39,149 nucleotides of DNA from a bacterium (GCA_027452085.1 DAIDHG010000002.1:1-39149); one strand, 5' to 3'. Positions 2,806 through 22,758 are shown, numbered from the stretch's first letter. Numbers and translations: made by a program. Notes: generated by a model from the letters alone, not told the origin.

Positions 2806-2845
2806 CTACGAGTTAAAATAACAACGTTTTTGTGGGATTAAATTC

Positions 2846-3433: not shown

Positions 3434-3512
3434 AGGGCTTGCGCTAGCAAAGTTTACCGAACGATGCTAGAATGCCCATTATTGAATTTGACTTAATCGT
3501 CTCTGAAATTTT

Positions 3513-3588
3513 GAGCCGCTAGCTCAATCGGTAGAGCAACAGACTCTTAATCTGTGGGTTGTTGGTTCGATTCCAACGCGGCTCACCA
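3513..3588 (+). tRNA. tRNA-Lys (anticodon CUU), CCA encoded
   Basis: Hand-folded cloverleaf. Acceptor gagccgc/gcggctc, D-arm gctc..gagc, anticodon stem acaga/tctgt with loop cTCTTAa, T-arm gttgg-ttcgatt-ccaac, discriminator A, then CCA. Confidence 0.9.
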
Positions 3589-3643
3589 CTAGAGCTCGCC
3601 ATGGGGCGATAAGCTGAATGGGCAGTGGTTTTTGAAAATATTT

Positions 3644-3728
3644 GCACGAGTGGCGAAATCGGCAGACGCACTGGATTTAGGTTCCAGCGCCGCAAGGCAT
3701 GGGGGTTCAAGTCCCTCCTCGTGCACCA
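3644..3728 (+). tRNA. tRNA-Leu (anticodon UAG), class II with long variable arm, CCA encoded
   Basis: Acceptor gcacgag/ctcgtgc, anticodon stem ctgga/tccag with loop ttTAGgt, long variable arm cgccgcaaggcat, T-loop ttcaagt, then A-CCA. Confidence 0.9.
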
Positions 3729-3826
3729 AAATGGTGGTTTAAAAAAAGGAAATCTCCGCTTAACAATGACCTTGATGGGTGTTGCCAAGGTTGATCGTAA
3801 GCGGCAAAAAAAAGAGAGGGTGAGTA

Positions 3827-5173
3827 ATGGATTCTAAGAATTTCGAATTCAACGAACTTCCAGCACAAGAGCAGCCAAGTTCTTTGCGTTTGCAAATTGA
3901 GCAGGCGCATCCACAATTGCTAACGGCTATCATGCATGTGCCGCATGGCATCATTAACCAGCTATATAACGAAGCTTCCGTTGTTCAAAAACGGCAATCC
4001 CATATCTTTGGATTTGCCCGGGGGCATACCCCACTTGGCTATGTTACCGAAGCATTTCGTTCGCACTTAGTTCAACATTTGCATGAGCTTTTGCTCAAAC
4101 ACGTGGTGCTCGATAACTTGTATCAGCAACTTCGTAGCCAGCGCATTGTTGTCAGCGGTGACCCACGGCTTTCTTCGTACGATATCTCCCTTTCATCAGA
4201 ATCTGCGCCTGGCGCCCGCTTTACCTTTGAATGTACGTTAACTGATAACTTTGCATTGCATGGATGGAAATATTTTCCATTTAAAGCGCCAAAACGAAAA
4301 AATTATCGCGATCTTGATCGTGCTGTCGAGCTCTTTATAAAGGGAGTTGAGGATGAGCAGAAGGAGCAAATCCCATCGCAGGCTCAGGTCAATGACTGGG
4401 TTAAGTTTGAACTGTGCATCGTTTCACAGGTGACGAAAGAGCAGATAAGCTCTTGGCAGCCATACTGGATTGTGATTGGCGGCGAAGAAATTGATACGCC
4501 GTTTCGCGAACTCTTTGAAGGCCGAGCCGTAGGTGAGCAATGGTACACAGATTCGCCGGTATTGCAGGAGTTTTTAAGCTCAAAGATGGATACAAATTAT
4601 TTGTTCCAGGTGCGCATTGCTGATTTAGCGCCACATTCACACTTTTCTCTTGAAGATTTTAAAACGCAATTTAGGTTGCGTACGCACAAAGATCTGCATA
4701 AAAAATTGATCGAGGTGTTTTCTTTGCGTAATGACCTCACCCAACGCAGAGAAACTATTGATGCTGTCTTTAAACTGTTGCTCACCAAAAATCCGGTCAC
4801 GCCACCATCGCACATTGTGTTGCGTCGGCAGGAATCACTCTTGATGCACGTGCAAGAAAATCCTGATTATCAAGTGTATCGCATGCAGCGTGGCTTTGAA
4901 AAAAACATCGAAGAACTGGCTGAAAAGCAAGTGAAAGAGCTGATGATTATCGATTATTTAGCCGCTCGAGAAAATATCACGGCATCATCCCAAGATGTGA
5001 GGCAATATCTAAACTTACTCAAGCGTGCTCGTACAAAAGAGTTTGTTTATTTTGATCTTCCCACAACGCGCATATTTGGGCAAGAAATGCCAATTTCTGA
5101 TGAATTGCTCAAGCGGTATTGTATTCGCGAAAAAACATTGAACTATGTGATCCATCATCTGACGAGAAATTGA
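3827..5173 (+). CDS. tig: Trigger factor-like chaperone (divergent)
   Basis: 448 aa. The N-terminal FGFARGHTPLGYV matches the GFRxGxxP ribosome-binding signature. The central segment (IVIGGEEIDTPFRELFEGRAVGEQW) resembles a degenerate FKBP domain. Size and architecture fit TF, and the RBS gagggtgag is present. The sequence is divergent, so this is an inference. Confidence 0.6.
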   Translation: MDSKNFEFNELPAQEQPSSLRLQIEQAHPQLLTAIMHVPHGIINQLYNEASVVQKRQSHIFGFARGHTPLGYVTEAFRSHLVQHLHELLLKHVVLDNLYQQLRSQRIVVSGDPRLSSYDISLSSESAPGARFTFECTLTDNFALHGWKYFPFKAPKRKNYRDLDRAVELFIKGVEDEQKEQIPSQAQVNDWVKFELCIVSQVTKEQISSWQPYWIVIGGEEIDTPFRELFEGRAVGEQWYTDSPVLQEFLSSKMDTNYLFQVRIADLAPHSHFSLEDFKTQFRLRTHKDLHKKLIEVFSLRNDLTQRRETIDAVFKLLLTKNPVTPPSHIVLRRQESLLMHVQENPDYQVYRMQRGFEKNIEELAEKQVKELMIIDYLAARENITASSQDVRQYLNLLKRARTKEFVYFDLPTTRIFGQEMPISDELLKRYCIREKTLNYVIHHLTRN

Positions 5174-5174
5174 G

Positions 5175-6131
5175 ATGCATAAGCTCATTATCATCGGTTC
5201 TGGCCCCGCTGGGTTGACTGCAGCCATATATTCCGGTCGAGCAAACCTTCAGCCGCTTGTTATTGAAGGGCGTGCGCCTGGAGGCCAGCTGATGGGCACC
5301 ACCTTGGTAGAAAATTGGCCTGGTGATAAACGTATCATGGGCCCCCAGTTAATGAGTGAAATGCGCGCGCATGCCGTGGCGTGCGGTGCTCAGTTTGTGA
5401 GCGATGAAGTAGTTGAGATTGTGCCACTCCCCTCGGCCCATAATGGCTGCTCAATGTTTAATATAAAAACGAGCTCATCAGGTGATTTTGAGGCGCATGC
5501 TCTTATCGTAGCCTCAGGTGCCTCACCTAAAAAACTGCATGTGCCTGGCGAGGATACCTATTGGGGCAAAGGAGTGACCACCTGTGCCGTATGCGATGGT
5601 GCCTTGTTTGCTAATAAGCCAGTAGTAGTGGTTGGCGGTGGCGATACGGCCATGGAAGATGCCCTATTTTTGACCAAATACACCGATGATATAACGATTA
5701 TACAGCTTTTTGATAAGCTCACCGCCTCCTATGCCATGCAACAGCCGGTCCTTGCCAATACGAAGATAAAGATTCTGTATCATCAAGCGGTGAAAGAGAT
5801 CATTGGGGAGTCTGGCCATGCGCGCCAACTTGTGGTCACGGATCAGAGAAATGGCGAGCAAACCACCGTGGAAGCTGAAGGCATTTTTATTGCTATTGGC
5901 CAGGTCCCGAATACCAAATTTCTCAAGGGGCTGATCAATCTTGATGAGTATGGGTATGTGCGTCTGCATGAAGCAAAATCGGATAGGTTTAGCATGCTGA
6001 CTGCTACCTCAGTGCCTGGCATATTTGCGGCTGGCGATGTGGCCGATCAGCGTTACCGGCAAGCGATCAGTTCAGCAGGCAGTGGCTGTATGGCAGCGCT
6101 GGACGTTGAGCGTTATCTGAAAAAATATTGA
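5175..6131 (+). CDS. trxB: Thioredoxin-disulfide reductase (low-Mr type)
   Basis: Contains IIIGSGPAGLTAAIY (FAD GxGxxG), the CAVC redox pair (5583..5594), VVVVGGGDTAMEDALFL, GIFAAGDV and YRQAISSAGSGCMAALD. It starts 1 nt after the tig stop. Confidence 0.9.
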   Translation: MHKLIIIGSGPAGLTAAIYSGRANLQPLVIEGRAPGGQLMGTTLVENWPGDKRIMGPQLMSEMRAHAVACGAQFVSDEVVEIVPLPSAHNGCSMFNIKTSSSGDFEAHALIVASGASPKKLHVPGEDTYWGKGVTTCAVCDGALFANKPVVVVGGGDTAMEDALFLTKYTDDITIIQLFDKLTASYAMQQPVLANTKIKILYHQAVKEIIGESGHARQLVVTDQRNGEQTTVEAEGIFIAIGQVPNTKFLKGLINLDEYGYVRLHEAKSDRFSMLTATSVPGIFAAGDVADQRYRQAISSAGSGCMAALDVERYLKKY

Positions 6132-6159
6132 TTCGGCCTGCATTGGCCAAAAGAGCTAT

Positions 6160-6188
6160 TTGAAAAATTACTCATTTTTGCGTATATT
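6160..6188 (+). promoter_or_regulatory. Sigma70-like promoter candidate for rpmH
   Basis: TTGAAA, a 17-nt spacer, then TATATT, about 54 nt upstream of the rpmH ATG. This is a sequence match only. Confidence 0.45.
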
Positions 6189-6241
6189 CTGAGCACTAAT
6201 TTCTCGTAAAAAATACTCGTCTTAATATTTCAGGATAGAAG

Positions 6242-6397
6242 ATGTCAGTTACTTTCAAGCTAAAACGTAAGAAACGCAATAAGAAACATGGCTTTCGCAT
6301 GCGCATGAAATCCAAGGATGGCCGCACCATTATTAACCGCCGCCGTTCTAAGAGCAGAAAGCGTCTAGCGGTTCGCGCACGAAAATCGAAAACATAA
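6242..6397 (+). CDS. rpmH: 50S ribosomal protein L34
   Basis: 51-aa ORF absent from the supplied track because it is under 60 aa: MSVTFKLKRKKRNKKHGFRMRMKSKDGRTIINRRRSKSRKRLAVRARKSKT. It matches the L34 pattern (KR..SHGFR.RM.T..GR.v...RR.KGRKRL). The RBS agga lies in caggatagaag. Confidence 0.85.
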   Translation: MSVTFKLKRKKRNKKHGFRMRMKSKDGRTIINRRRSKSRKRLAVRARKSKT

Positions 6398-6463
6398 GAT
6401 TGCTACTGTTGAGCCATCAATAGTAATCAGGCAGTCTTCAGCATATAATTAATTGAATTATTA

Positions 6464-6494
6464 GAGCGCCCGGCTAAGATAGGTTGTGGCGCTC
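6464..6494 (+). terminator. Possible terminator/attenuator hairpin between rpmH and tolQ
   Basis: gagcgcc / 17-nt loop / ggcgctc, followed by GTTTAATGTT. The loop is long and the T-tract weak. Confidence 0.3.
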
Positions 6495-6520
6495 GTTTAA
6501 TGTTAAAAAGGGTGAATCCT

Positions 6521-7222
6521 ATGTTTGGTAATGCGTTATGGCAGCTCGTGATGTCTGCCGATACCATCAGTAAGTTGGTATTGTTTGTATTGCTCGTAAT
6601 GTCGGTTGTGTGTTGGACAATCTTTTTCTATAAATTCATTCTACTTCGGCTCAAGAAGCAGCAGGTGCGCGATGCCTTACATAAAGTTCGATCGGCCCAT
6701 ACGCTGCCTGATCTGGTTAACTACGCAAATGCCACCTCAAAAACCTTGCCCGGGTATTTTTTAACCCAAAATTTAGCACTCTTGCGACGCGTGCTTGAAA
6801 AGCATACCGGCCCAGCGGGCGAGACACCGGCGCAGATAGGTAAATCATTAACGCAACGTGACTGGGACACCTTAGAGCTTGGTATCCAACATTCATTTGG
6901 CGATATCATGTTTCAAGAAGAATCATATCTTTCAGTCCTCTTTATATCTTCTGGTGTGGCCACCTTAGTAGGTCTATTCGGTACGGTTTGGGGGCTGATC
7001 CATGCATTTACGCGCATTGCTGAAAAGCAATCAGCAGATATTGCCACCGTCGCACCGGGGATTGCTGAAGCATTGATTACCACTATGGCTGGTTTGATCG
7101 TAGCAATTCCTGCTTACGTGATGTATCACTACTTGGTCGCAGAAAATAGACGTCTTGAACACGAGTTTTCTCAGCTCGCTGAGCGGTATGAATTAATCAT
7201 CAAACGTCTCGTGGCTTCATAA
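6521..7222 (+). CDS. tolQ: Tol-Pal system protein TolQ (MotA/TolQ/ExbB proton channel)
   Basis: Three TM segments. GTVWGLIHAF and TVAPGIAEALITTMAGLIVAIP are the family signature. I prefer the start at ATG 6521 (RBS aagggtga); the track start at 6500 is also possible. Confidence 0.85.
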   Translation: MFGNALWQLVMSADTISKLVLFVLLVMSVVCWTIFFYKFILLRLKKQQVRDALHKVRSAHTLPDLVNYANATSKTLPGYFLTQNLALLRRVLEKHTGPAGETPAQIGKSLTQRDWDTLELGIQHSFGDIMFQEESYLSVLFISSGVATLVGLFGTVWGLIHAFTRIAEKQSADIATVAPGIAEALITTMAGLIVAIPAYVMYHYLVAENRRLEHEFSQLAERYELIIKRLVAS

Positions 7223-7234
7223 TTGAGGTTTGCC

Positions 7235-7639
7235 ATGCAACTGAAAAGAAGATCGCGCACCGAACACCAGCCGGAAGTAAACGTTATTCCATTAATCGAT
7301 GTATCACTGATGCTGCTGTTGGTATTCATGGTGACCACGCCAATGCTTCATCATGGCATAAAGGTTGAGCTGCCAAAAGGTAAGGCGCAAGAAACAAGAT
7401 CATTGGAAGAGGATTTGGTGGTGCATATCGATAAAAATAATAATCTTTTCCTCTCTGGCCAACCAACGACATCTACAAAGCTCGAGTCTCAGTTGAAGTC
7501 TACCGTGAAAAAAGATCAAACCGTTTTTGTTAAAGCAGATCGTGGCATTTCATACGGCACAGTCATTGAGCTCGTTGACCGCATCAAGCAGATTGAGGGC
7601 ATCAAATATGTTGCACTTGCCACTGAGCGGAAAGCATAA
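7235..7639 (+). CDS. tolR: Tol-Pal system protein TolR (ExbD/TolR family)
   Basis: EVNVIPLIDVSLMLLLVFMV (the conserved Asp-containing TM) followed by a periplasmic domain, VFVKADRGISYGTVIELVDRIKQ. ATG 7235 is preceded by gagg; the track uses TTG 7223. Confidence 0.85.
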   Translation: MQLKRRSRTEHQPEVNVIPLIDVSLMLLLVFMVTTPMLHHGIKVELPKGKAQETRSLEEDLVVHIDKNNNLFLSGQPTTSTKLESQLKSTVKKDQTVFVKADRGISYGTVIELVDRIKQIEGIKYVALATERKA

Positions 7640-8624
7640 ATATCTTGCCCAACTTTTGTGTTGCGTAGCTGCAGGGCATTTAATTGCGCTATTTCTTATC
7701 TTCTTCGTATATCGCGGCGATTTATATGAGCGCCATCTCACCATAAACCTTCCCTTAGATGCTCATATTGTTTTAATGCCGTTTCAAAAATCGCTCTTAG
7801 GCTCGGGCGGCGGTAAACCCGGCCGGCCAAAAAAACAAAAAACAACAGAGACAAAGCAAGACGATTCATTTTTAGATGATGGCCCAGATAACGATGACTC
7901 TGGGGTTGATTCCTTGCCGAGCAAAATTCAACCCTCCTCTACGCTGAGTGGGCAAATTACCACCTTGGATAATGGCGACTTTGAACGCAAAAGAAAAGCT
8001 CGAGAACGTGAAAAAAAGCGCCGAAAGAAATTAGCACGTGAAAAGCGGGAAAAGGCATTGCGAGAAAAGAAGAAGAAAGATCTTGCAAAAAAGAAGGCGG
8101 CAGAGGAAAAAATGAGGCTTGAGCAAAAATCAGCTGAAGATAAAAAGAGAGCTGAGAAAAAGAAATCAGATGCAGCATTGGCTCAAGAAGCGGAAAAGAG
8201 ACAAAAAGAAGAACAAAAAAAAGTTGAAGAGCAAAAAAAACAGGCAGAGTTGAAAAAAACGCCAGCGGTAGATATTGATCTATTGAATGATGTTTCAGGT
8301 GCTGATCAGGTCGAAGGTGGTGATGGCGGTTTTGGTGATGGCGATCAGCCATTTTATGTTGGCCAATATGATTTAGAAACCATACAATTAGCTCAACAAG
8401 TAGCTGCAGAGGTTGCCACGGTCTGGCGCCCACCAGCAGGATTTAGAAATCGTAGTTGTACGGTGCGTTGTATTTTAGATTGGCAGGGCGGTATTACATC
8501 ACTTGCTTTTGAACAGCCGTCAGGTAGCCCGGTGTTTGATGTATCAGTCAAACAAGCAATGCACAAAATGAAATTTCCTAAGGAATTGTATGGTAAAGAA
8601 ATTATTTTGCCGTTTACTGCATAA
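7608..8624 (+). CDS. tolA: TolA-like protein (TM anchor, Lys/Glu-rich helical domain, TolA/TonB C-terminal domain)
   Basis: The first in-frame ATG (7608) that leaves the TM segment LLCCVAAGHLIALFLIFFVY N-terminal. A K/E/R/A-rich tract spans 7983..8258. The C-terminus VWRPPAGF..CTVRCILDWQGGITSLAFEQPSGSPVFDVSVKQAMHKMKFP fits the TolA domain III pattern. It sits between tolR and tolB. Confidence 0.72.
   Translation: MLHLPLSGKHKYLAQLLCCVAAGHLIALFLIFFVYRGDLYERHLTINLPLDAHIVLMPFQKSLLGSGGGKPGRPKKQKTTETKQDDSFLDDGPDNDDSGVDSLPSKIQPSSTLSGQITTLDNGDFERKRKAREREKKRRKKLAREKREKALREKKKKDLAKKKAAEEKMRLEQKSAEDKKRAEKKKSDAALAQEAEKRQKEEQKKVEEQKKQAELKKTPAVDIDLLNDVSGADQVEGGDGGFGDGDQPFYVGQYDLETIQLAQQVAAEVATVWRPPAGFRNRSCTVRCILDWQGGITSLAFEQPSGSPVFDVSVKQAMHKMKFPKELYGKEIILPFTA
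7983..8258 (+). repeat. Low-complexity Lys/Glu/Arg/Ala-rich coding tract inside tolA
   Basis: ERKRKAREREKKRRKKLAREKREKALREKKKKDLAKKKAAEEK...KKVEEQKKQAELKK, with purine-rich aaa/gaa repeats at the DNA level. Confidence 0.8.
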
Positions 8625-10062
8625 CCGTAGTGCTCAACATGATGAAAACGCGCGGCTCGGAGAAAGGGGGCCAACTCACCGGCCGCCTTCACCGTTTGTT
8701 CGACTGTATCTTTTGCTTATAACTATTTTGTTTTTGTTGTTTGGTTTTGAGCGAGAGTCAATCTGCAGTTCGCAACCATTGGCTCAGCCTGAGCAGCTTC
8801 AGATGGCCACCGTTACGGCGCAATTATTTGCCAAAATGCCGCTCCTTATAGTAACGCAATCGCAGAAGAATCTGAAAAAAATATTGCCACTATTTCAACA
8901 TGATCTTGAATTTACCAATCAGTTTGTGGTGAAAATTGCTCCTTCTCAGAATGAGTTTGAAATAAAGAAAAGCAGTTTTGCAAAATGGGCTGAAGAGGGC
9001 TATCCATTGGTGCTGTTGTTGGAAGATAAAAAAGATCAGATCATCTGGAGATTATACGACACCGCATCGATCTCAATGATCAAAGGGCAACAGTTGAGCG
9101 TTTCAAGCAAGCCAAATGTAACAGCCCATGCGCTTGCCGACCAAGTATGGCCGGCGCTCACGGGATCATCTGGATTTTTCTCTTCAAAAATTGCTTATAG
9201 CAAAATGGCGCACCGAAGAGGCCGCAATATTAAACGCCATCTCATGATGCGAGATGCCACTGACATGACGGGGCATAGTGAGGAATTACTGGTCAACTCA
9301 CCAACCATCAGTGTTTCCCCGCGGTGGAACAAAGATCTCAATTCACCAATCATTCTCTATTCTGAATATACCAAATCAAATGTGCGCTTAGTTGCGGTGA
9401 ATATGGAAGGAAAACGATCCATCGTCTCTAACTTTGATGGGGTGAATATGCAGGTTGCTTATAGCCATGATGGCAAGGAGGTGGTCTATTGTCTTTCACG
9501 GCCGCCGTTGCCGCATTTACCTTCGCACACCACCACCCAACTATACCATTACGCGGTTGATGACGATGGAAGACCGGCAGTCAAGCGATTAACGCCATTG
9601 CCGGGCAATAACTTTGCGCCATGCTGGGGGCCCGGTAATACCATTTTTTATGCAACTGACCTTGGTTCGTTGGGCAATCCAAAAATACATTGGCATTGCC
9701 TCAAGAGTGGAACGATCACTCCAATCACCGCCACCGGCTTTGCCGTAAGCCCTACCTACAGCCCATCTGCGCATCGCTTGGCATATGCCAAGATGGTGAA
9801 AGGGCGTATGCAGCTATTTTTATATGATCTAGATACCAAGAAAGAAGAGCAAATTACCTTTGATAACGCAAGCAAAGATGAATGTTGTTGGTCACCATGC
9901 GGTAATCTGTTGGCATTTGTTGCCGAGCAACCAAACGGCAAGAGCCGCATCGGATTGTTTAATGTGCAAACGGGCGAGCAAAAAATGATTACCCCGACCC
10001 ATGAAGATTGCTGCTACCCACATTGGTCGCCAATATATGCGCAGTTGCCGATGAAAAGTTAA
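8590..10062 (+). CDS. tolB: Tol-Pal system beta-propeller protein TolB
   Basis: Repeated propeller blades (SPRWNKD.., AYSHDGKEVVY, SPTYSPSAHRLAY, CCWSPCGNLLAF, YPHWSP). ATG 8590 has the RBS aagga and overlaps the tolA end. The N-terminal 35 aa before the hydrophobic leader are unusual, so the true start may be downstream. Confidence 0.85.
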   Translation: MVKKLFCRLLHNRSAQHDENARLGERGPTHRPPSPFVRLYLLLITILFLLFGFERESICSSQPLAQPEQLQMATVTAQLFAKMPLLIVTQSQKNLKKILPLFQHDLEFTNQFVVKIAPSQNEFEIKKSSFAKWAEEGYPLVLLLEDKKDQIIWRLYDTASISMIKGQQLSVSSKPNVTAHALADQVWPALTGSSGFFSSKIAYSKMAHRRGRNIKRHLMMRDATDMTGHSEELLVNSPTISVSPRWNKDLNSPIILYSEYTKSNVRLVAVNMEGKRSIVSNFDGVNMQVAYSHDGKEVVYCLSRPPLPHLPSHTTTQLYHYAVDDDGRPAVKRLTPLPGNNFAPCWGPGNTIFYATDLGSLGNPKIHWHCLKSGTITPITATGFAVSPTYSPSAHRLAYAKMVKGRMQLFLYDLDTKKEEQITFDNASKDECCWSPCGNLLAFVAEQPNGKSRIGLFNVQTGEQKMITPTHEDCCYPHWSPIYAQLPMKS

Positions 10063-11759
10063 CCTTTCTGTTTGAGAGGTAATGCAAGCGGCGGCGGGCA
10101 ACTCGTTTGTATTGAAGTGAGCATCGGTGAGATTGGGGGACTACCAATTGAGCTTGCCAGTGAGTCTGAATCCGATGTTGTTTGTGAGCTTGGAATTTCT
10201 GATGGGGGCGTTTCATAACCAGGCACGACTGTTTTCTTGGGGTCGATTTTTATAAAGCTATGATGCAAGCTTCGTGGTGGAAATAGGCTTGATTTAGACC
10301 CATTTTGTGCTGGTTCAGTACCCAATTCGGGTTTTGGCTGAGAGGATATTTGCTGTAGGTTCATTGGCGGCAACGATGCCAGAACTTTGATAGCGGGAAT
10401 GCTTGGTCTCCTAGGCGTTACATTACTAAATGGCAGCGGCATTGGCTGTTCGGCAGTATCTGCCATCGGCACATCTACATTTGTTGGCGAGGATAACGGC
10501 GTATGTTCGATGAAAGTTAATTCAGGATCAACAGCTGAATCTTCCCTCTGAGTATCTGGAGGTAGGGGGGATGATCGTGGTGTACCTTCTCCATATATTT
10601 CACTCAACTTATCGCTCAGAATCTTTTGACGATTTGAGAACATTTTCTGGCGCTCTGCTTGCATGTTTTTGTCAACTTTCGATTTTTGTGCATTGTCAAA
10701 AATCTCTTTTACCGGACCAACATGAGCTTTACACGTCTCTAAAACATCTATCAAAATTTTGTGGGTTTCAGCGGCTAAATCAAACAATTTATTATTTTTT
10801 AAACAGCCACGATGAGTTTTGAGTATACTTATGACGGCATCTTCAAGCATCATCTTTTTTGTCCAATCTTCCATAAGGGTCTTTAAATCAGATGTGGCTT
10901 GAATTGGAAAATCATGGATTAATTCAGATAGCCGACCATCAAGTGAGGGGATTGGGAGTCCTTCAGTGCTTGAATTTTCATATATTTCATAGGCCTTTTG
11001 GATAAATTGCAACTTCTCGAAAACCAAAGCAAAGCAGTCTCGTTGCCTCTTGGCCCATAAGGTAGTGAGCTCTTTTGTTGTGAGTGTTGCATCGTCGCAC
11101 GCTATGTTTCTGTTCGACCAAAGGCAATTGCCTAATACTAATGCAATGGCATATGGCCGAAATTCCTCAACGCTGGGCATTATCGTATCATCTAATTCTT
11201 GCGCGAATTCACGTCTTCGAGCACTGAAGGGGCTGTGTACTTCCTTTTTTCTTTTATCGTTTTTAGGGCTTGATCTGAGCGCGTCGTCTCGTTCGGTGGT
11301 ATTACAATCAAAATGATGCGTTTTGATTGGTGTTGAAACGAGGCTTCGCTCTTGTAACGTTCTATAAAGAGCACCTGGTACAATCTGTCCATTTACTTCT
11401 GAGTAGAGCCGCCTATGCTGAGCGACCTTTTGAAAATATAACATGCCAGTTTTCTGCAGCTGTTGTAAGGGGAATTCCCATTGTTTATATTCTTGCATAA
11501 TGCGGAAAAGCAAGTTTTCCCCTGCAGATGCATTCACCCATTGTGCCCATTCCATACCTTCGGGCGTTAAGACTTTGACCTGAGTATACAGTGATATTTT
11601 CTTGGCCAGCTTGTCCTCAGTGGAGCCGTCAATTTTTCGTTTTGCCTTTGATGAGTTGGTAATTCCCCGATCCTCCGGCGAAAGTGATGTGGCACCAATA
11701 GTATTGCACAAGCCCAGTAGGGTGAAAAGCAATAAATGGGGTATGCGCAATTGAATCAT
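10059..11759 (-). CDS. Large secreted hypothetical protein with a Pro/Ser-rich disordered C-terminal tail
   Basis: 566 aa with signal peptide MIQLRIPHLLLFTLLGLCNTIGA. I recognise no domain. The last 175 or so aa (10062..10586) are P/S/T-rich. It overlaps the tolB end by 4 nt in convergent orientation. Confidence 0.6.
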   Translation of the reverse strand: MIQLRIPHLLLFTLLGLCNTIGATSLSPEDRGITNSSKAKRKIDGSTEDKLAKKISLYTQVKVLTPEGMEWAQWVNASAGENLLFRIMQEYKQWEFPLQQLQKTGMLYFQKVAQHRRLYSEVNGQIVPGALYRTLQERSLVSTPIKTHHFDCNTTERDDALRSSPKNDKRKKEVHSPFSARRREFAQELDDTIMPSVEEFRPYAIALVLGNCLWSNRNIACDDATLTTKELTTLWAKRQRDCFALVFEKLQFIQKAYEIYENSSTEGLPIPSLDGRLSELIHDFPIQATSDLKTLMEDWTKKMMLEDAVISILKTHRGCLKNNKLFDLAAETHKILIDVLETCKAHVGPVKEIFDNAQKSKVDKNMQAERQKMFSNRQKILSDKLSEIYGEGTPRSSPLPPDTQREDSAVDPELTFIEHTPLSSPTNVDVPMADTAEQPMPLPFSNVTPRRPSIPAIKVLASLPPMNLQQISSQPKPELGTEPAQNGSKSSLFPPRSLHHSFIKIDPKKTVVPGYETPPSEIPSSQTTSDSDSLASSIGSPPISPMLTSIQTSCPPPLALPLKQKG

Positions 11760-12090
11760 GTCATTCCAGTATTATGTATATGCAACGACTTTTGGGCGAG
11801 GAATGACAACATACCATATGGCTATGAGCTTGCCAATTTTATTGCTGTTCCGTCAAAAACTCTAATGCTGTGTATCGCCAAAACCTCTATTCAAAAAGCA
11901 AAAAATTAATCTCGAGAAGAGAGTCTATGACGTATAAATGGCAATGACTTTGGCTCTACCAGGGTCCACGTTTGTTGGCATGCCGGTAGCGAGAGCTTGG
12001 ATTTGCTTGAGGAATGAAAATGGGCGGAGCGATGGCATCAACACCTGATGGTTCACCGCTCACACCCAAAGTTATGAGGCGAGAAAAAGA

Positions 12091-15957: not shown

Positions 15958-16707
15958 ATGACCCCCACAAAACTCATGTATATGGAAGATTTCAATCTTC
16001 TAAAATCTCCGGCAACTGTTGTTGATGTCGTTCAAGAAAATGGCCGAACCATTGTTATTCTTGATCAAACTATTTTTTATCCGCAGGGTGGCGGCCAACC
16101 CTATGACAAAGGTGTGATTATCGGTCCATTGGGCCGATTTTTAGTGGCCGAAGTGCGTTTTGTTGATGGCATCGTAAAGCATATCGGCTCGTTTGAGATG
16201 GGAGAGTTTAAAACGGGCGATTCGGTGCAATGCGAAATCGATGTGCCTCGCCGGTATTTGAATAGCCGGTTGCACGCTGGTGGGCATCTTGTTGATATGG
16301 CAATTCATGCCCTTGGTCTTAACTGGAAGCCTGGCAAAGCATACCATTTCCCCGATGGCCCCTATGTTGAATATTCAGGAAGCATGCAAGGCTGGGATAA
16401 GGAAGAATTAAAAAAGAAGATCCAAGAAGAAGCGCAGAAATTAATTGAGAAGGGTGCTGAAGTTAAACTGCTCTTTATGAGTAAGCAAGAGATGGCAAAT
16501 CTGTGCCATTCGGTGCCTGAAAATCTTCCTGAGGGTAAACCAGCTCGCGTTGTCATGTACGGTGATTTTGGAATTCCCTGCGGCGGCACTCATGTAAACA
16601 ATATTCGCGATATTGGCGGCATTATTGTGCGTAATATTAAGGTGAGCAAAGGCAGCCAAGATGGTGAGGAAATCATCAAAGTTGGCTACGATGTGCCGCG
16701 AGATTAG
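15958..16707 (+). CDS. alaX: Free-standing alanyl-tRNA editing protein (AlaX-M-like; ThrRS/AlaRS second additional domain)
   Basis: Contains FYPQGGGQPYDKG, the zinc motifs HAGGHLVDMAIH (HxxxH) and CGGTHVNNIRDIG (CxxxH). ATG 15958 is preferred over the track start 15889. Confidence 0.85.
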   Translation: MTPTKLMYMEDFNLLKSPATVVDVVQENGRTIVILDQTIFYPQGGGQPYDKGVIIGPLGRFLVAEVRFVDGIVKHIGSFEMGEFKTGDSVQCEIDVPRRYLNSRLHAGGHLVDMAIHALGLNWKPGKAYHFPDGPYVEYSGSMQGWDKEELKKKIQEEAQKLIEKGAEVKLLFMSKQEMANLCHSVPENLPEGKPARVVMYGDFGIPCGGTHVNNIRDIGGIIVRNIKVSKGSQDGEEIIKVGYDVPRD

Positions 16708-17258
16708 TGCAATGCAAATCGTTCAATAATCGTATGCTCAGCGCCCTGAGGATGTGTGATTGATGATTTTAATACGAATTCACTAATCCAGAATGGCAGC
16801 TGAGGTTCAATTTTGAAGTCGCGTAACAGCTGCGTAAATTTTTTCTTATCTAATACATTTTTTGCGCGCGCAATGGTGATATGGTTTGCCAATGCTTTGT
16901 TGCTTCGCGGCACTATGTCAGCCAGCGCATTTTCGATACATTGGGCAAGAGCAGATACACTAGTTTCCTCAACGGAGAGCCACATAACTGGCGTGTTGCT
17001 TCGCGGATGAAATGCGCCCAAATGTTTGAGCCGTGAGGTGAAAGCTTTGAAATCGATTTTTTTGAGTCGCTCAATAATCTGAGGAATTAATGCTTCATCG
17101 ACCGCGCCTATGAATTTTAATGTGATGTGCAGCTGTTCGGGTCGCGTGTACGAGCCCTCAATAATTTGCATGTTGGCAATCTGTTGTTGGATTTGTACAA
17201 GAGTTTTACAAACTTCAGATGGCAGATCAATGGCAATAAATAAGCGCATCATTGCCAT
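16704..17258 (-). CDS. thpR: RNA 2',3'-cyclic phosphodiesterase / 2'-5' RNA ligase (2H phosphoesterase)
   Basis: 184 aa with two HxT motifs at the expected spacing (LHITLKFIG and NHITIARA). It overlaps the alaX stop by 4 nt in convergent orientation. Confidence 0.85.
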   Translation of the reverse strand: MAMMRLFIAIDLPSEVCKTLVQIQQQIANMQIIEGSYTRPEQLHITLKFIGAVDEALIPQIIERLKKIDFKAFTSRLKHLGAFHPRSNTPVMWLSVEETSVSALAQCIENALADIVPRSNKALANHITIARAKNVLDKKKFTQLLRDFKIEPQLPFWISEFVLKSSITHPQGAEHTIIERFALH

Positions 17259-17260
17259 AC

Positions 17261-17620
17261 TTATAACTCAGTATATTTGGTTGCTCTGCTTTTTGCTTTT
17301 TCGATGGGATATTTCTCTGCGTTGTGTTTGAGTTTGTTTTCAATAACAGAAGTTAGATCAATATTGTTTTGATTGGCGAATGCGAGTGCATAGATTACCA
17401 CATCGGCCAGCTCATGCTCGATTTCAGTTCTTTTTTTCTCAAAAATCTGTTTTTCATCAGCTGGGCTTGCCCACTGAAAAATCTCCATAAGCTCAGCAGC
17501 TTCACAGGCGATACCCATGCTTAAATTCTTTGGCGTGTGGAATTGATTCCAATCACGTTCATCTACAAATTGTTTAAATCGTTCTTTGAGTTGGGCAACC
17601 GTGGTTGTTTGATCTAACAT
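17261..17620 (-). CDS. MazG-like nucleoside triphosphate pyrophosphohydrolase (small all-alpha type)
   Basis: 119 aa. FVDERDWNQFHTPKNLSMGIACEAAELMEIFQW and ELADVVIYALAFAN fit the EExxE/D metal-binding helices of the MazG/DCTPP1-like family. Confidence 0.8.
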   Translation of the reverse strand: MLDQTTTVAQLKERFKQFVDERDWNQFHTPKNLSMGIACEAAELMEIFQWASPADEKQIFEKKRTEIEHELADVVIYALAFANQNNIDLTSVIENKLKHNAEKYPIEKAKSRATKYTEL

Positions 17621-17634
17621 TCATATCCTATTTT

Positions 17635-18000
17635 TTAATATGATGGTGAAAAAGCGTTGGCAATATACTCGACCAAACTATTCCCTTCAACTATGGCAAC
17701 ATCAAACCGAATGGTATAACTACTCGCCCACGGTGTGTGCGCCTGCCAATATTTGGCCGCATTGATGATTCGTTGCTGCTTGCGCCAGGGAACCATATCG
17801 GCAATAAGCCCAGTTACTGCCCGGCGCGACTTTACCTCAATAATAGAAACTACTCCATTTTTTATAGCAACTATATCTAGCTCACCCATTCGGCATTGCA
17901 CGTTGGTATCAACTATTTTAAAGCCAGCATTCGTGAGCCAGTCAGCTATCAGTTTTTCGCCTAGGGCTCCTTTTTGGCGGGTGTTGAGTTGAGTTTTCAT
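17635..18000 (-). CDS. yraN: YraN family (UPF0102) endonuclease-like protein
   Basis: GALGEKLIADWLTNAGFKIVDTNVQCRMGELDIVAIKNGVVSIIEVKSRR is the PD-(D/E)xK-like YraN core. I prefer the start at ATG 18000 (MKTQLN); the track start at 18066 adds 22 aa. Confidence 0.85.
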   Translation of the reverse strand: MKTQLNTRQKGALGEKLIADWLTNAGFKIVDTNVQCRMGELDIVAIKNGVVSIIEVKSRRAVTGLIADMVPWRKQQRIINAAKYWQAHTPWASSYTIRFDVAIVEGNSLVEYIANAFSPSY

Positions 18001-18309
18001 AAAAGCCTTTATTTTGTGAGATGGAAATGATTTCTTGTGGTAGACGCTCCCAAGAAAATAGTACACTCTTGGCGTCGGAGAAGGAGCTTCTACTAGCCTG
18101 CGAGTGTATATTTTCTTAGTCGCTTGGCGATTTTAGAAATTCCAACCATCAATGCTCTGGCTAGTCATCGTTGATTTAAAATTATGCCTGTTTTCAGAAG
18201 AATACAAGGGAAGCGCAGGTGCGGTTCTGTCTGCCGGCATTTTTCATCATTGGCAGTTTGTACTATACTTACCAACCCCTAAGAAATATATAAATAAGGT
18301 ATTAAAAAG

Positions 18310-20955
18310 ATGAAAAAGCGAGCAAAAAGACCACCAATGTTCCAAGGTGCACCACGCAATCTCCTCTTAGTAGTCGGCCTATTAATGATTGGGTTGCTCA
18401 CCCTGGTCAAACTCAATGAATCAATCACCCAAATTAAGCAGCTGAGCTATACCAGCTTCCTCAAAAAGGTAGAGTCGCATGAGGTAAAATCTATCCGTGT
18501 GACCGGCCAGGGGATATGGGGCCAATTTACCTCGGGCGAGCAGTTTGAAACACTGCTGCCTGAAGGGTATCGCGATTGGGATTTCTTTAAAAATAATAAT
18601 GTAGATGTGCTTATTGATTCTCAGGCGGCTCAATGGAGCCTGGGGCTTGTCCTTGGCGGCCTGCTCTCACTCTTTGCCTTAGTCGGACTGGGAGTCTTTC
18701 TATATCGCCAGTCGCGCAACGGCGGCGGTGGTGGCGGCGGCACCATTTTCTCAATGGGCAAAAGCCGTGCTCGTGTATTTATGCCATCACAAATAAAAAC
18801 CAAATTCTCTGATATTGCCGGTGCATCTGAGGCTAAAGAACAGCTAAAAGATGTGGTTGATTACCTGAAATATCCTGAAAAATATCGCCGACTCGGCGCC
18901 AAGGTTACCCGCGGCGTGTTATTGGTAGGTGAGCCAGGCAATGGTAAGACCCTCATGGCCCGCGCCGTTGCTGGTGAGGCCGGTGTGCCATTTTTTAGTA
19001 TTACTGGATCAGACTTTATAGAAGTTTTCGTGGGCGTTGGTGCTTCACGAGTTCGTGATCTCTTTGCCCAAGCGCGCAAATATGCACCGGCAATCATCTT
19101 TATCGATGAAATTGATGCTATCGGCCGCATGCGCGGCAGTGGTCTTGGCGGTGGTCATGATGAGCGTGAGCAAACCCTCAATCAGTTGCTCACTGAGATG
19201 GATGGTTTTGAAACCGGCGATGCGCCACCATTAATTGTTCTTGCTGCAACCAATATGCCAGATGTACTCGATAAGGCCCTGCTTCGCCCGGGTCGATTTG
19301 ATCGTCGGGTGACGGTGCCGTTCCCTGATCTGAAAGATCGCGAACAAATTTTATGGATCCATGCCTCGTCTATTATGCTTGATCCATCAGTTGATCTTGG
19401 CAAAATGGCTGCGGTCACTGCCGGCTTTAGCGGGTCTGATCTGGCCAATTTGGTGAATATTGCTGCTATTAACGCTTCAAAAGCCAACCGATCAGCCGTG
19501 AGCCAAGAGGATTTTGAAGCCGCACATAAAAATATTTTGCAATCACATGCTACTGATGGCACAAAGACATCCGCCGAAAAGAGCGTATATACCCCCAAGA
19601 TGCTGATGCCGGCCCAGATGAAATTGAACTTTAATTCGGTGGCAGGGGCTACTGAAGCCAAAGAAGAGTTAAAAGATGTGGTCGATTTCCTGCGCAATCC
19701 TGAAAAGTACCAGCGTCTTGGTGCCCAAATGCCAAAAGGGGTATTGCTGACCGGCGAACCCGGTAACGGTAAAACCTTGTTGGCCAAGGCGGTGGCTGGA
19801 GAAGCAAATGTGCCGTTCTTTCATGCCAGCGGCTCTGAATTTGTTGAAAAATATGTCGGCGTTGGCGCTGCCCGTGTACGTGAGCTCTTTACCAATGCGC
19901 GCCGCCATGCACCCGCCATCATCTTTATGGATGAAATCGATGCCATTGGCAGTAAGCGAGTGTATGAAGGTGGCGGCTCACAAGAGCATTCCCAAACGTT
20001 AAACCAACTGCTTACTGAGCTTGATGGGTTTGATACTATGACTGGTGGCCCCGTCATTATTATGGGCGCGACCAATAGGCCAGACGTGCTTGATAAAGCT
20101 TTGCTGCGCCCGGGTAGATTTGATAAGCAGGTAGAGGTGCCATACCCAGACTTGGTAAGTCGTAAAAAGATCTTAGAGCTGCATGCCAAAGATAAGAAGA
20201 TTGATCCTTCTATTAGTTTTGATGCGCTGGCCCGCGGCACCCCTGGATTCTCGGGAGCAGAGCTTGCAAATCTTATCAATGAGGCCGTTATTCATGCTTC
20301 CAAGCTGAATAAGGAAATGGCTACATTGTCTGATTTTGAAGAAGCTCGCGATAAGATCCTATTGGGCAAAGAAAGTAAATCAAAACTTCTGACCAAGGAA
20401 GATCTTGAGGTCACGGCATACCATGAAGCTGGCCATGCCTTGGTCCGCTTGCTCTTGCCGCAGCATTCTGACCCTCTGTATAAGATAACCATTATTCCTC
20501 GGGGCCGTGCATTGGGGGTGACCCACTCATTGCCTGAGAAGGAAAGCTATACCCGTGATAAAGAGCATATGCTTGCAAGCATTGCCTCTGCCTTAGGCGG
20601 CCGGGCAGCCGAAGAGATTGTCTTTAACCGTTTAGAAACAGGGGCAGCGAGCGATTTTCAAGCCGCAACCTCTGTGGCTCGGAACATGGTGGTAAATTAC
20701 GGCATGTCGGAAAAGCTTGGCCTGGTTTCCTATGCTGATTTCCGCTATTTATCGCAGCACACGATCCAGCTTATTGACGATGAAATTCGTTCAATAACCA
20801 ATCAGTGCTATGATCGTGCAAAGCATTTGTTGAGCTCGAACCGCGACAAACTGGATCTTTTGGCCAAGAAACTCTTGGAAAAAGAGACTTTGTATGCCGG
20901 TGAGATCTATGAATTGCTTGGCATTACCCCGCGTGAGCAGTTTAAGTTGTCGTAG
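18310..20955 (+). CDS. ftsH: ATP-dependent zinc metalloprotease FtsH with a tandemly duplicated AAA+ module
   Basis: 881 aa. The order is: two TM segments flanking a periplasmic domain; a poly-Gly linker; AAA module 1 (Walker A GEPGNGKT at 18928..18951, Walker [33 protein letters not shown]); AAA module 2 (GEPGNGKT at 19753..19776, [29 protein letters not shown]); then an M41 peptidase with HEAGH (20422..20436). Confidence 0.9.
18778..19539 (+). repeat. FtsH AAA+ module, copy 1 of an intragenic tandem duplication
   Basis: Residues about 157-410 align colinearly with residues about 432-684, at a constant 275-aa offset. By eye roughly two thirds of positions are identical. Confidence 0.85.
19603..20361 (+). 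repeat. FtsH AAA+ module, copy 2 of an intragenic tandem duplication
   Basis: See copy 1. The pore-loop motif is FVGVGA in copy 1 and YVGVGA in copy 2. Confidence 0.85.
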
Positions 20956-21138: not shown

Positions 21139-21360
21139 ATGGCACGCATTTGTAACATCTGTGATAAAGGACCAACGGTTGGCAATTTTGTCAGCCACGC
21201 AAATAACCGCGTAAAGCGTTGGATCTATCCGAATACGCATACTATGCGCTACACCTTGCCAGGTAGGGAAAACAAAGTGCACCGTGGGGCAGTTTGCACC
21301 AAGTGCGTAAAGGCTGGCAAAGTCCAAAAAGTTCTTTCAGGTAAGACTCAAGCAGGATAA
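21139..21360 (+). CDS. rpmB: 50S ribosomal protein L28
   Basis: MARICNICDKGPTVGNFVSHANNRVKRWIYPNTH matches the L28 N-terminal signature (C..tGK.p..GN.vSHA.n.tKR.f.PNl). RBS aaggaa. Confidence 0.9.
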   Translation: MARICNICDKGPTVGNFVSHANNRVKRWIYPNTHTMRYTLPGRENKVHRGAVCTKCVKAGKVQKVLSGKTQAG

Positions 21361-21366
21361 CCGCAC

Positions 21367-21633
21367 ATGGCAAATTTAGCTTCATCAAAAAAACAAGCTC
21401 GTAAAAATATTAAGCGCCGTGGTATTAACACTGCGCGCAACTCAGCAGTAAAAACTGCATTGCGCAAAGTGAACGATGCACTGGAAAAGAAAGACGTAAA
21501 AGCAGCACAAGCATTGATGCGTGACGCTGAATCACAACTTGCTCGCGCAAAAGGTAAAGGCCTTGTGCATGCATCAAACGCAGCTCGCCGTATCGGCCGG
21601 TTGGCCCACCGCATAGCGCAAGCTGGCAAGTAA
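21367..21633 (+). CDS. rpsT: 30S ribosomal protein S20
   Basis: MANLASSKKQARKNIKRRGINTARNSAVKTALRKV plus the C-terminal NAARRI..L. Typical S20, 88 aa. Confidence 0.9.
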   Translation: MANLASSKKQARKNIKRRGINTARNSAVKTALRKVNDALEKKDVKAAQALMRDAESQLARAKGKGLVHASNAARRIGRLAHRIAQAGK

Positions 21634-21711: not shown

Positions 21712-22758
21712 ATGAAAACGTATATTAAAAGGGTCGTTCCTCTGGCGATCTATCTCTCCTTGCCATTAATAGGTTCATCTTTTGAATCTGATACTAGTCT
21801 TAGAGATATATTCTCTCAGATAAAACCCGACATGTTTGAAATTGACCCACGCTATGGGCGACCTGACCCTGATCAGTTTTTATTTGGTCCAGAAGATAGT
21901 GTTTTCAAGCAATCATGTGTGCAAAAGGCTGAGAATTTGCGTTTGTTGAAAATCGATCAAGAAGCCATAGCAGTAGGGCAAGATGATATTGGTACCACGG
22001 GCTTAGTGATTGATAGATCTGGCAGCTATTATTTAAAGGAAGATATTAATTTTAATCCTGATCCATCAGGTAATGCTACCGCTGCCATCACCATTAACGC
22101 ATCGAAGGTGACCCTATTTCTTGATGGCCATGCTCTTATTCAGCAAGGTTTTACCGATGCCTCAGATATTCCAATCTATCGGGGAGCAAGAAAGCCATCC
22201 TCGCAAAAGCCATTTGTCACCGGCATTTTGATCTCGAATGTGATGCAAAATTCAAAAGATCCCCAAGCTGACGGGCTCCATGATATTGCCATAGTGGGTT
22301 CCGGTGCCATCATTAATGGCTTTAGCCAATATGGCATTCGCATCTCGGAAAATAGTTCTCGCATTTCCGTCATTGATATTGCAATAAAAAATTGCGGTAC
22401 GGTAGCTTCCTACTATCTACATCCTGAAAGTTACTATACACGTGAGGAGCCGTATGGGCCTGCCTTTGGTGTCGGCGGGATGTACGTTGGGGATTGCAGG
22501 GATTTAGCAGTTGGTTCAACTCATAACCGGGTAGATAATCTATTGATTGCCAATGTGGATTGCCTAAATAATTTCTTGTATGGTCTTTGCATGGTAAATG
22601 TGACTAATTGGTATCTTGGAAATAGCACATTTGATGGAACGTTTAGTGATGATCCACGGCTGTGCGATCCACGTGCAGCTTTTTGGGACGGTGATTGTTT
22701 TACCGGGCGTTACGAGATTGATGGGATTGTTTGTAGCGGTACTGTTTGTAAATGGTGA
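21712..22758 (+). CDS. Secreted hypothetical protein, probable right-handed parallel beta-helix (pectin-lyase-like fold)
   Basis: Signal peptide MKTYIKRVVPLAIYLSLPLIGSS. It has repetitive coils of about 22-25 aa rich in I/V-x-I/N/G (AAITINASKVTLFLDGHALI, TGILISNV, HDIAIVGSGAIINGFSQYGIRISENSSRISVIDIAIKNCG, NLLIANVDCLNN). The C-terminus is Cys-rich. The fold call is an inference. Confidence 0.5.
   Translation: MKTYIKRVVPLAIYLSLPLIGSSFESDTSLRDIFSQIKPDMFEIDPRYGRPDPDQFLFGPEDSVFKQSCVQKAENLRLLKIDQEAIAVGQDDIGTTGLVIDRSGSYYLKEDINFNPDPSGNATAAITINASKVTLFLDGHALIQQGFTDASDIPIYRGARKPSSQKPFVTGILISNVMQNSKDPQADGLHDIAIVGSGAIINGFSQYGIRISENSSRISVIDIAIKNCGTVASYYLHPESYYTREEPYGPAFGVGGMYVGDCRDLAVGSTHNRVDNLLIANVDCLNNFLYGLCMVNVTNWYLGNSTFDGTFSDDPRLCDPRAAFWDGDCFTGRYEIDGIVCSGTVCKW

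Follow-up and report, generated by a model that had tools for sequence, protein, structure and literature searches.

To our knowledge, FtsH is universal among bacteria, and no other membrane-anchored AAA+ protease is. Its canonical single-ring form is a weak unfoldase, and the biology of FtsH is usually explained by such a weak single-ring unfoldase choosing substrates of low stability. In ClpAP and ClpCP, a double ring gives a stronger unfoldase, and the tandem AAA proteins VAT and Cdc48 can feed a protease, the 20S proteasome. The FtsHi proteins carry an inactive M41 site and act as an import motor, not as a protease. Tandem FtsH-type AAA proteins have been described in the FtsH ternary systems, which belong to the MoxR-vWA conflict systems and occur in multicellular bacteria; there, the N-terminal module is inactive, with loss of its P-loop as well as of Walker B, and the tandem AAA genes adjoin MoxR and vWA genes (Kaur et al. 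2020; PMC7159879). Two AAA+ domains also occur in some Ycf2/Orf2971 proteins of green algae, and Ycf2 of the green lineage has lost the M41 domain (PMC9421593). Here, we describe an ftsH gene with two complete AAA+ modules, which lies on a 39,149-nucleotide stretch of bacterial DNA (GCA_027452085.1 DAIDHG010000002.1:1-39149), the whole of which is referred to below as the window. Full-text literature searches yielded no account of a membrane FtsH in which two AAA modules are active, and the term "FtsH" is listed with zero occurrences for the three TM6 genome papers.

The gene encodes 881 residues (Table 1), and an initial annotation, made by a model from the sequence alone, had read it as an FtsH with two tandem AAA+ modules followed by a single M41 protease domain. 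Searches with profile hidden Markov models (HMMs) bore this out. PF00004 (AAA) and PF17862 (AAA_lid_3) each matched in two stretches and PF01434 (Peptidase_M41) once, and the NCBIfam FtsH equivalog model TIGR01241 scored 1109.3 bits against a cutoff of 600, also in two stretches. The E. coli-type FtsH model NF008004 was not passed (883 versus a cutoff of 1008 bits), and the Pfam FtsH_ext match, at residues 21–89, scored 24.5 bits, below its cutoff of 25.5. Hydropathy and the AlphaFold model both placed two transmembrane helices on either side of a small periplasmic domain, which is beta-rich in the model. The protein has two sets of the hallmarks of a classical-clade AAA module: Walker A, Walker B, a pore loop with an aromatic residue, and a second region of homology carrying a pair of arginine fingers. 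The HEXXH zinc site of the M41 domain is present as the single HEAGH of the whole protein, beginning at residue 705, together with D782 as the third acidic ligand, and H705, E706, H709 and D782 were invariant in 58 aligned sequences. By every tested feature except the number of modules, the protein is a member of the FtsH family.

The two modules, D1 (N-terminal) and D2, form a colinear repeat. In a self-comparison by BLASTP, D1 and D2 were identical at 160 of 269 positions (59%), with 76% positives and an E value of 3e-116; the repeat itself was as first described, and the identity was lower than the two thirds that had been judged by eye. Similarly, the offset between the copies, given earlier as a constant 275 residues, is 275 up to Walker B and 274 beyond a gap of one residue in the pore-2 loop. 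What is repeated is exactly one AAA+ module, extending from the N-terminal strand that in canonical FtsH comes after the membrane linker through the last lid helix. The Walker A, Walker B, pore-loop and arginine-finger motifs were all located in both copies, as had been reported. In addition, the DGF motif lies at residues 298 (D1) and 572 (D2), the sensor-1 ATN at 313 and 587, and the arginine-finger motif LLRPGRFD at 324 and 598. The Walker A sequence GEPGNGKT, shared by both copies, does depart from the usual motif as had been noted: 51 of 76 canonical FtsH outgroups have GPPGTGKT, and none of the 76 has Asn at the corresponding position. Between the modules, residues 411–431 are variable, with a mean top-residue frequency of 0.31 in a rough full-length alignment of 1620 columns in which the repeats are misaligned.

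For the homologues, 5.8 billion protein clusters were searched, and 111 of the best 120 matches listed were proteins of 846–934 residues with 54–91% identity over the full length. All of the named homologues were FtsH proteins of Candidatus Dependentiae, Babeliales, Babeliaceae or candidate division TM6, and several lay on contigs of 0.9–1.35 Mb. Canonical FtsH has one AAA module per protomer, whereas exactly two were detected by the module HMM in all 111 full-length homologues, as in the query. The 224 modules of these 112 sequences were extracted with the module HMM and then aligned. In both D1 and D2, the Walker A Lys and Thr, the Walker B Asp-Glu, the sensor-1 Asn, both arginine fingers, the aromatic-Val-Gly of the pore loop and the DGF inter-subunit signalling motif were kept in 112 of 112 sequences; one objection foreseen in the initial annotation, that one copy might have lost its sensor or arginine-finger residues, is answered by these counts. 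Walker A in the family reads G[ED]PGNGKT. The columns that were at least 99% invariant over the 112 sequences numbered 78 of 263 in D1 and 69 of 261 in D2, and of the 143 positions with at least 95% conservation in canonical FtsH, each module keeps 78%. Overall, conservation is equal in D1 and D2. These results indicate that the gene in the window codes for FtsH, the membrane protease, in a bacterium of the Dependentiae (TM6, Babeliales-type), and that the doubled module is a phylum-level trait of the Dependentiae family, not a peculiarity of the window genome.

For the comparison with the closest orthologue, which is 91% identical (locus L082), the proportions of non-synonymous (pN) and synonymous (pS) differences are reported in place of the ratio dN/dS, since synonymous saturation blocks that ratio for most regions. 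The pS values were saturated (0.69–0.81), whereas pN was 0.042 for D1, 0.065 for D2, 0.051 for the M41 domain and 0.127 for the N-terminal region. D1, the "extra" ring, is thus the most constrained region of the protein as measured by pN, and both modules are under strong purifying selection. The two modules differ at specific positions. The canonical pore-2-loop residues R273, G280 and E287 are kept in D1 and altered in D2; conversely, the canonical residues of the lid and protease junction, G643, P645, E658, D681 and G686, are kept in D2 and altered in D1. This complementary divergence is the pattern expected if D1 is proximal to the membrane and D2 proximal to the protease.

The origin of the repeat was examined in a neighbor-joining tree of 57 D1 modules, 57 D2 modules, 38 canonical modules and 20 modules of four-module proteins (described below), with 200 bootstraps; the outgroups were canonical FtsH loci listed in a scan of genome contigs, dominated by Proteobacteria, including other phyla and with no Dependentiae genome among them. 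All D1 modules formed one clade (95.5%) and all D2 modules another (79.5%), and D1 and D2 together were separated from the other sampled modules with 100% support. These clades indicate that one internal tandem duplication occurred before the sampled Dependentiae diverged, with no concerted evolution afterwards. Judged from the sequences, the results point to a single old tandem duplication of the whole AAA+ module, the ATPase core with its lid, both copies of which would have been retained as full motors. Within FtsH, the nearest relative of D1 is D2 and vice versa, and the duplication is therefore independent of that in Cdc48/p97; it also arose independently of the multi-module FtsH proteins in other lineages. 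An origin by fusion of two distinct FtsH paralogues is unlikely, as D1 and D2 fall together in the tree and what is repeated is one AAA module exactly.

For the structure, two AlphaFold monomer models, one of the full protein and one of D1-D2 alone, confirmed the domain folds, with a predicted template modeling score (pTM) of about 0.5. In a Foldseek comparison, D2 together with the M41 domain of the model superposed on AFG3L2 (6nyy_E) with a template modeling (TM) score of 0.88, normalized to the target, and a root-mean-square deviation (rmsd) of 2.8 Å, and on FtsH (3kds) with a TM score of 0.76, likewise normalized to the target. The top structural matches of the D1-D2 model were VAT/p97-type proteins, with 36–38% identity over about 550 aligned columns, and residues 164–674 aligned in a single colinear stretch with VAT (5vc7, residues 6–516) and with p97 (residues 201–695).

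Taken together, we consider it likely that the protein carries two intact FtsH-type motors derived from one old duplication, and that it forms a hexamer in which two stacked AAA rings sit on one protease ring; the stacked geometry is a proposal from these comparisons. Since each chain has one M41 domain, and this domain with D2 superposes on the hexameric AFG3L2 and FtsH, the hexamer should hold twelve AAA modules. In the proposed mechanism, six protomers would assemble through the M41 ring as in canonical FtsH, placing the twelve modules in two coaxial hexameric rings, with the D1 ring under the membrane and the D2 ring on the protease ring. A substrate would be gripped by the pore loops of D1 and next by those of D2, and would be threaded into the M41 chamber. 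Given the weakness of FtsH as an unfoldase and the precedent of the double-ring Clp and Cdc48 enzymes, a second active ring should add grip, processivity and unfolding power over the single-ring enzyme.

FtsH-like proteins with more than one module were also found outside this family. In a profile-free scan of 1.84 billion representative proteins, modules were counted on the best 150 (P0130–P0279), 31 of which had at least two AAA modules; the ranking favors multi-module proteins since the query itself has two modules, and these counts are not frequencies. Among 26 multi-module proteins examined, 16 had every module intact, and all but one contained an HEXXH motif. One of them, P0130 (1184 residues), has three intact modules, and other members of its cluster are named Thermoleophilaceae. 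Several of the multi-module representatives appear to be without the two-helix anchor, and P0133 (1428 residues, two HEXXH motifs) looks like two complete FtsH units fused.

Four-module proteins were encountered as well. Nine of them, of 1433–1484 residues with one M41 domain each, were among the listed matches of the first search; proteins of this type include P0010–P0017, P0024 and P0039, and the gene lies at 5001–9455 in loci L084 and L085. In these proteins, the first and fourth modules are fully intact; the pore loop is altered (F-M-G) in module 2 and lost in module 3, which has kept Walker A and B. For P0017, the one locus checked, the gene comes immediately after rsfS on contigs assembled from several metagenome samples, and wolf is mentioned in one record name. 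In the neighbor-joining tree, the modules of the four-module proteins grouped together (99%), and their expansion is independent of the Dependentiae duplication. In several other multi-module proteins, the modules of one protein are each other's nearest neighbors in distance. This grouping of a protein's own modules suggests that multi-module FtsH probably arose several times. The earlier remark that no description of the arrangement was known stands for a membrane FtsH with two active modules, for which no publication was found, and has to be qualified by the FtsH-like proteins with two to four modules elsewhere.

The proteolytic setting of the Dependentiae can be read from two tabulated genomes. 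In the COG table for Babela massiliensis and JCVI TM6SC1, respectively, the counts are 0 and 0 for each of ClpX, ClpP, HslU and HslV, 4 and 1 for HflB (FtsH, COG0465), 2 and 3 for Lon, and 1 and 1 for ClpA/B (PMC4378268); LpxC is absent in both (supplementary COG table, PMC4378268). The column order of this table was deduced from the counts for MurC, UppS and TrxB, which agree with the text of the same paper (PMC4378268). The B. massiliensis genome paper also mentions an "expansion of ATP-dependent Zn proteases", the domain architecture of which is not described there (PMC4378268). At least these two organisms are thus without ClpXP, ClpAP and HslUV, so that no ATP-dependent proteases other than Lon and FtsH are left. 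It is a plausible hypothesis that a strengthened FtsH compensates for ClpXP and HslUV having been lost, and because the two tabulated genomes have neither ClpXP nor HslUV, protein turnover in the Dependentiae, which are obligate parasites of protists, may depend centrally on the doubled FtsH.

One relative, L081, carries several genes of the FtsH family. On its 33-kb contig (Logan run SRR12900993), three such genes lie in succession (2772–4613, 6001–7914 and 8638–11898), upstream of the L28 and S20 genes. The first encodes 613 residues with the family-typical N-terminus and a single module, the first half of which is D1-like and the second half D2-like. This assignment was made by profile log-odds scoring, which was used instead of diagnostic columns because only two columns distinguish D1 from D2 at the 80% level. 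The chimeric module would be explained either by an in-register collapse through recombination or by a chimera of the assembly. The second protein (637 residues, P0177) differs in its N-terminus and has one module, which is D2-like. The third protein (1086 residues) has three degenerate AAA modules, in which Walker B is lost and Walker A reads GDSGNGKE, GPKGNGKF and GQPGNGKS, and an M41 domain with HESGH. A Walker A of the form GxPGNGKT was also seen in the one- or two-module FtsH-like proteins P0134, P0152, P0163, P0173, P0231, P0273 and P0279, which have different, signal-peptide-like N-termini. These proteins may correspond to the additional "ATP-dependent Zn protease" paralogues reported to be expanded in B. 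massiliensis.

Several observations weigh against the reading of two active, stacked motors fixed by one ancient duplication. First, the AlphaFold monomer models did not reproduce the D1/D2 orientation of p97: superposition on p97/Cdc48 protomers gave TM scores of 0.45–0.51, normalized to the D1-D2 model, and lower scores for the full-length model, with an rmsd of 9–12 Å. Second, the activity of each ring is deduced from sequence, and conservation of motifs is no measure of ATPase activity. Third, in a larger tree without bootstraps, the single-module protein P0177 fell inside the D2 clade, with P0273, P0235, P0161, P0163 and P0173 nearby; some secondary losses or a deeper paralogy are likely, which makes the timing and the exclusivity of the duplication less certain. 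Fourth, B. massiliensis has four COG0465 genes and L081 three FtsH-family genes, and the two-module protein is therefore not always the only FtsH of the cell. Finally, the link to the loss of ClpP rests on two genomes tabulated in a supplement; of the organism of the window, 39 kb is available.

These points bear first on how many of the rings work. It is possible, and in our judgment rather unlikely, that the hexamer has two rings and one working motor, with D1 (or D2) mainly binding nucleotide and stabilizing or regulating the hexamer with little translocation, as does D1 of p97 or D2 of NSF. The rings of type II AAA+ proteins commonly differ in activity despite intact motifs; D1 of p97 is a poor ATPase although its motifs are intact. 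The position-specific divergence of D1 and D2 in the pore-2 loop and the lid would fit such a division, and modules 2 and 3 of the four-module FtsH proteins, with pore loops altered or lost and Walker motifs kept, illustrate that drift to non-threading modules can occur. However, every one of the 112 sequences has kept both pore-1 loops, together with the Glu of Walker B, the Asn of sensor 1 and the two arginine fingers, and non-synonymous divergence is lower in D1 than in any other region. If a ring were purely structural, one would not expect it to retain a substrate-gripping pore loop across a phylum.

An arrangement without stacking is improbable. Three protomers might form one six-membered ring of alternating D1 and D2, for example, or D1 might be a distinct unit for recruitment or unfolding that lies alongside the D2/M41 core. 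The D1-D2 linker, with about 18 variable residues predicted to be disordered, could span to a lateral neighbor, and for the three- and four-module proteins a coaxial stack of three or four rings would be unprecedented; moreover, the monomer models lack a p97-like orientation of D1 and D2. Against this, a trimer would provide half a protease ring, whereas each protomer has one M41 domain, and this domain superposes closely on the hexameric AFG3L2 and FtsH. The spacing of D1 and D2 is colinear with that of the stacked VAT and p97 in one alignment stretch. In addition, the canonical protease junction is kept specifically in D2, and D1 follows the canonical Gly-rich linker from the anchor.

That the repeat is an artefact of assembly, or a recent duplicate heading for decay, can be dismissed almost entirely, even though tandem repeats are a known cause of assembly errors and the single chimeric module of the 613-residue L081 protein illustrates that a collapse, biological or in assembly, is possible, since D1 and D2 are only 68% identical in DNA over 505 nucleotides (59% in protein), form separate clades and are both under strong purifying selection, and since the architecture recurs in over 100 clusters that were assembled independently, among them contigs of more than 1 Mb. 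At this DNA identity, the duplication is old, and no assembler would create or collapse the two copies. The initial annotation had come to the same view of both possibilities from the conservation of catalytic residues in the two copies, and the invariant catalytic and pore residues and the very low pN alongside saturated synonymous sites uphold it.

The genes around the two-module FtsH gene are listed in Table 1 together with the features of the protein. The 91%-identical relative L082 has exactly the same gene arrangement. The order FtsH-L28-S20 is found in the relatives L082 and L083, and in L081 the cluster of FtsH genes likewise ends with L28-S20. Neither the scanned neighbors in L082 nor the ten larger open reading frames (ORFs) of the window that were scanned contained a MoxR or vWA domain. 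A defense or conflict-system role was rejected, as the IteA model scored 205 bits against a cutoff of 510 and the features of the FtsH ternary systems are absent. Some ORFs of the window had no Pfam match. Just after rpsT lies an ORF of 348 residues (21712–22758, plus strand) with a signal-peptide-like N-terminus and no Pfam match, and a gene of 343 residues, again with no Pfam match, occupies the same position in L082. ORFs of 566 residues (10059–11759, minus strand) and 448 residues (3827–5173, plus strand) had no Pfam match at an E value of 1e-5.

Table 1. Coordinates in the window of the two-module FtsH gene, its domains and motifs, and the adjacent genes (aa, amino acids; TM, transmembrane; pLDDT, predicted local distance difference test score)
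Feature	Position	Strand	Basis
LigT-like, MazG-like and UPF0102/YraN-like genes, divergent, upstream	16704..18066	-	ORFs; the same three with Pfam assignments in L082
Two-module FtsH ORF, 881 aa plus stop	18310..20955	+	ATG start, ORF listing, Pfam, TIGR01241
TM helix 1, about residues 15–40	18352..18429	+	Hydropathy peak, windows starting 13–21; AlphaFold helix 15–40
Small periplasmic domain, about residues 41–107, FtsH_ext-like	18430..18630	+	Weak FtsH_ext match; beta-rich in model
TM helix 2, about residues 108–134	18631..18711	+	Hydropathy peak, windows starting 106–115; AlphaFold helix 111–137
Gly-rich flexible linker, membrane anchor to D1	18712..18756	+	Read from sequence; pLDDT <50, residues 137–148
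AAA+ module D1 including lid, about residues 150–413	18757..19548	+	Module HMM envelope 150–413
D1 Walker A GEPGNGKT, residues 207–214	18928..18951	+	Lys213 and Thr214 kept 112/112
D1 pore-1 loop FVGVG, residues 240–244	19027..19041	+	Family: F110/Y2, V112, G112
D1 Walker B IIFIDEID, residues 262–269 (IIFIDEIDA from 262)	19093..19116	+	Asp266 and Glu267 kept 112/112
D1 second region of homology, residues 313–331: sensor-1 Asn315, arginine fingers Arg326 and Arg329	19246..19302	+	Each 112/112
D1-D2 linker, about 18 residues (about 414–431), variable, predicted flexible	19549..19602	+	Low conservation; pLDDT <50 at 416–425
AAA+ module D2 including lid, about residues 432–687	19603..20370	+	Module HMM envelope 425–687
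D2 Walker A GEPGNGKT, residues 482–489	19753..19776	+	Lys and Thr kept 112/112
D2 pore-1 loop YVGVG, residues 515–519	19852..19866	+	Family: Y95/F17, V112, G112
D2 Walker B IIFMDEID, residues 537–544 (IIFMDEIDA from 537)	19918..19941	+	Asp and Glu kept 112/112
D2 second region of homology, residues 587–605: sensor-1 Asn and two arginine fingers	20068..20124	+	Each 112/112
M41 zinc metalloprotease domain, residues 688–881; HEAGH at 20422–20436	20371..20952	+	PF01434 197.6 bits, residues 694–868
rpmB (ribosomal protein L28), directly downstream	21139..21360	+	Translation
rpsT (ribosomal protein S20)	21367..21633	+	ORF listing; named by synteny with the L082 gene matching PF01649

What is new here is an FtsH with a doubled, fully conserved motor; the design is not categorically new, as it has parallels in other lineages. 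A doubled motor, both copies of which have stayed intact throughout a phylum's history, provides a natural experiment on the effect of a second ring on grip, processivity, and the extraction and unfolding of stable proteins. It also offers a simple system for communication between rings, since its rings are nearly identical paralogues, in contrast to the rings in ClpA, ClpB and p97. The independent two-, three- and four-module FtsH-like proteins suggest a general, overlooked phenomenon, which automatic annotation records just as "FtsH". We give roughly even weight to the broader view in which the Dependentiae FtsH would be an undescribed membrane-anchored "type II" AAA protease, with two active threading rings on one M41 ring, fixed phylum-wide after a single ancient duplication and possibly compensating for the loss of ClpXP and HslUV, and in which it would be one instance of a wider unrecognized trend, with two to four intact modules arising independently in lineages that include Thermoleophilaceae and uncultured gut-metagenome bacteria. 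The finding is clearly of interest to specialists on AAA+ proteases and is directly testable.

Compared with known systems, the protein shares most with canonical bacterial FtsH, as in E. coli, Thermotoga, Thermus and Aquifex, and with AFG3L2 and YME1, the m-AAA and i-AAA proteases of mitochondria. The likeness includes the two-helix anchor, the small periplasmic domain and the Gly-rich linker; the classical AAA module with an FVGVG-type pore loop, DGF and the second region of homology; and the C-terminal M41 domain with HEXXH and the Asp ligand. The differences lie in the Walker A motif, which is GPPGTGKT in canonical FtsH and G[ED]PGNGKT in the window family, and in the number of modules: the FtsH, AFG3L2 and YME1 chains among the solved-structure matches listed have one AAA module each, the longest being 644 residues, whereas the window protein has two.

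Cdc48/p97, VAT and NVL likewise have two tandem classical AAA modules joined by a linker of about 20 residues. Cdc48, p97 and VAT, however, have a double-psi-barrel N domain where the window protein has a membrane anchor, and the protease of the window protein is covalently attached. The CDC48 model TIGR01243 scored 430.6 bits, far below its cutoff of 802.65. Because of this score, the independent duplication and the lack of an N domain, the protein is not a member of the Cdc48 family; it resembles the type II AAA+ unfoldases in architecture. With ClpAP and ClpCP, the analogy is functional, in that two stacked AAA+ rings deliver substrate to a self-compartmentalized protease. The Clp enzymes belong to a different AAA+ clade, have D1 and D2 of different origin, use a separate serine-protease subunit and are soluble, and ClpX models match the window protein only weakly.

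The closest published cases have either an inactive first module or no protease. In the FtsH ternary systems, the N-terminal AAA module is inactive and the genes lie in a MoxR/vWA context, whereas the Walker A and B motifs of D1 are intact throughout the window family and the gene lies in a housekeeping context (YraN-like, L28 and S20). The plastid Ycf2/Orf2971 and FtsHi proteins are derived from FtsH, like the window protein, and FTSHI 2 was among its solved-structure matches (8xku_F); in Ycf2 and FtsHi, M41 is lost or inactive, whereas in the window family HEAGH and D782 are invariant.

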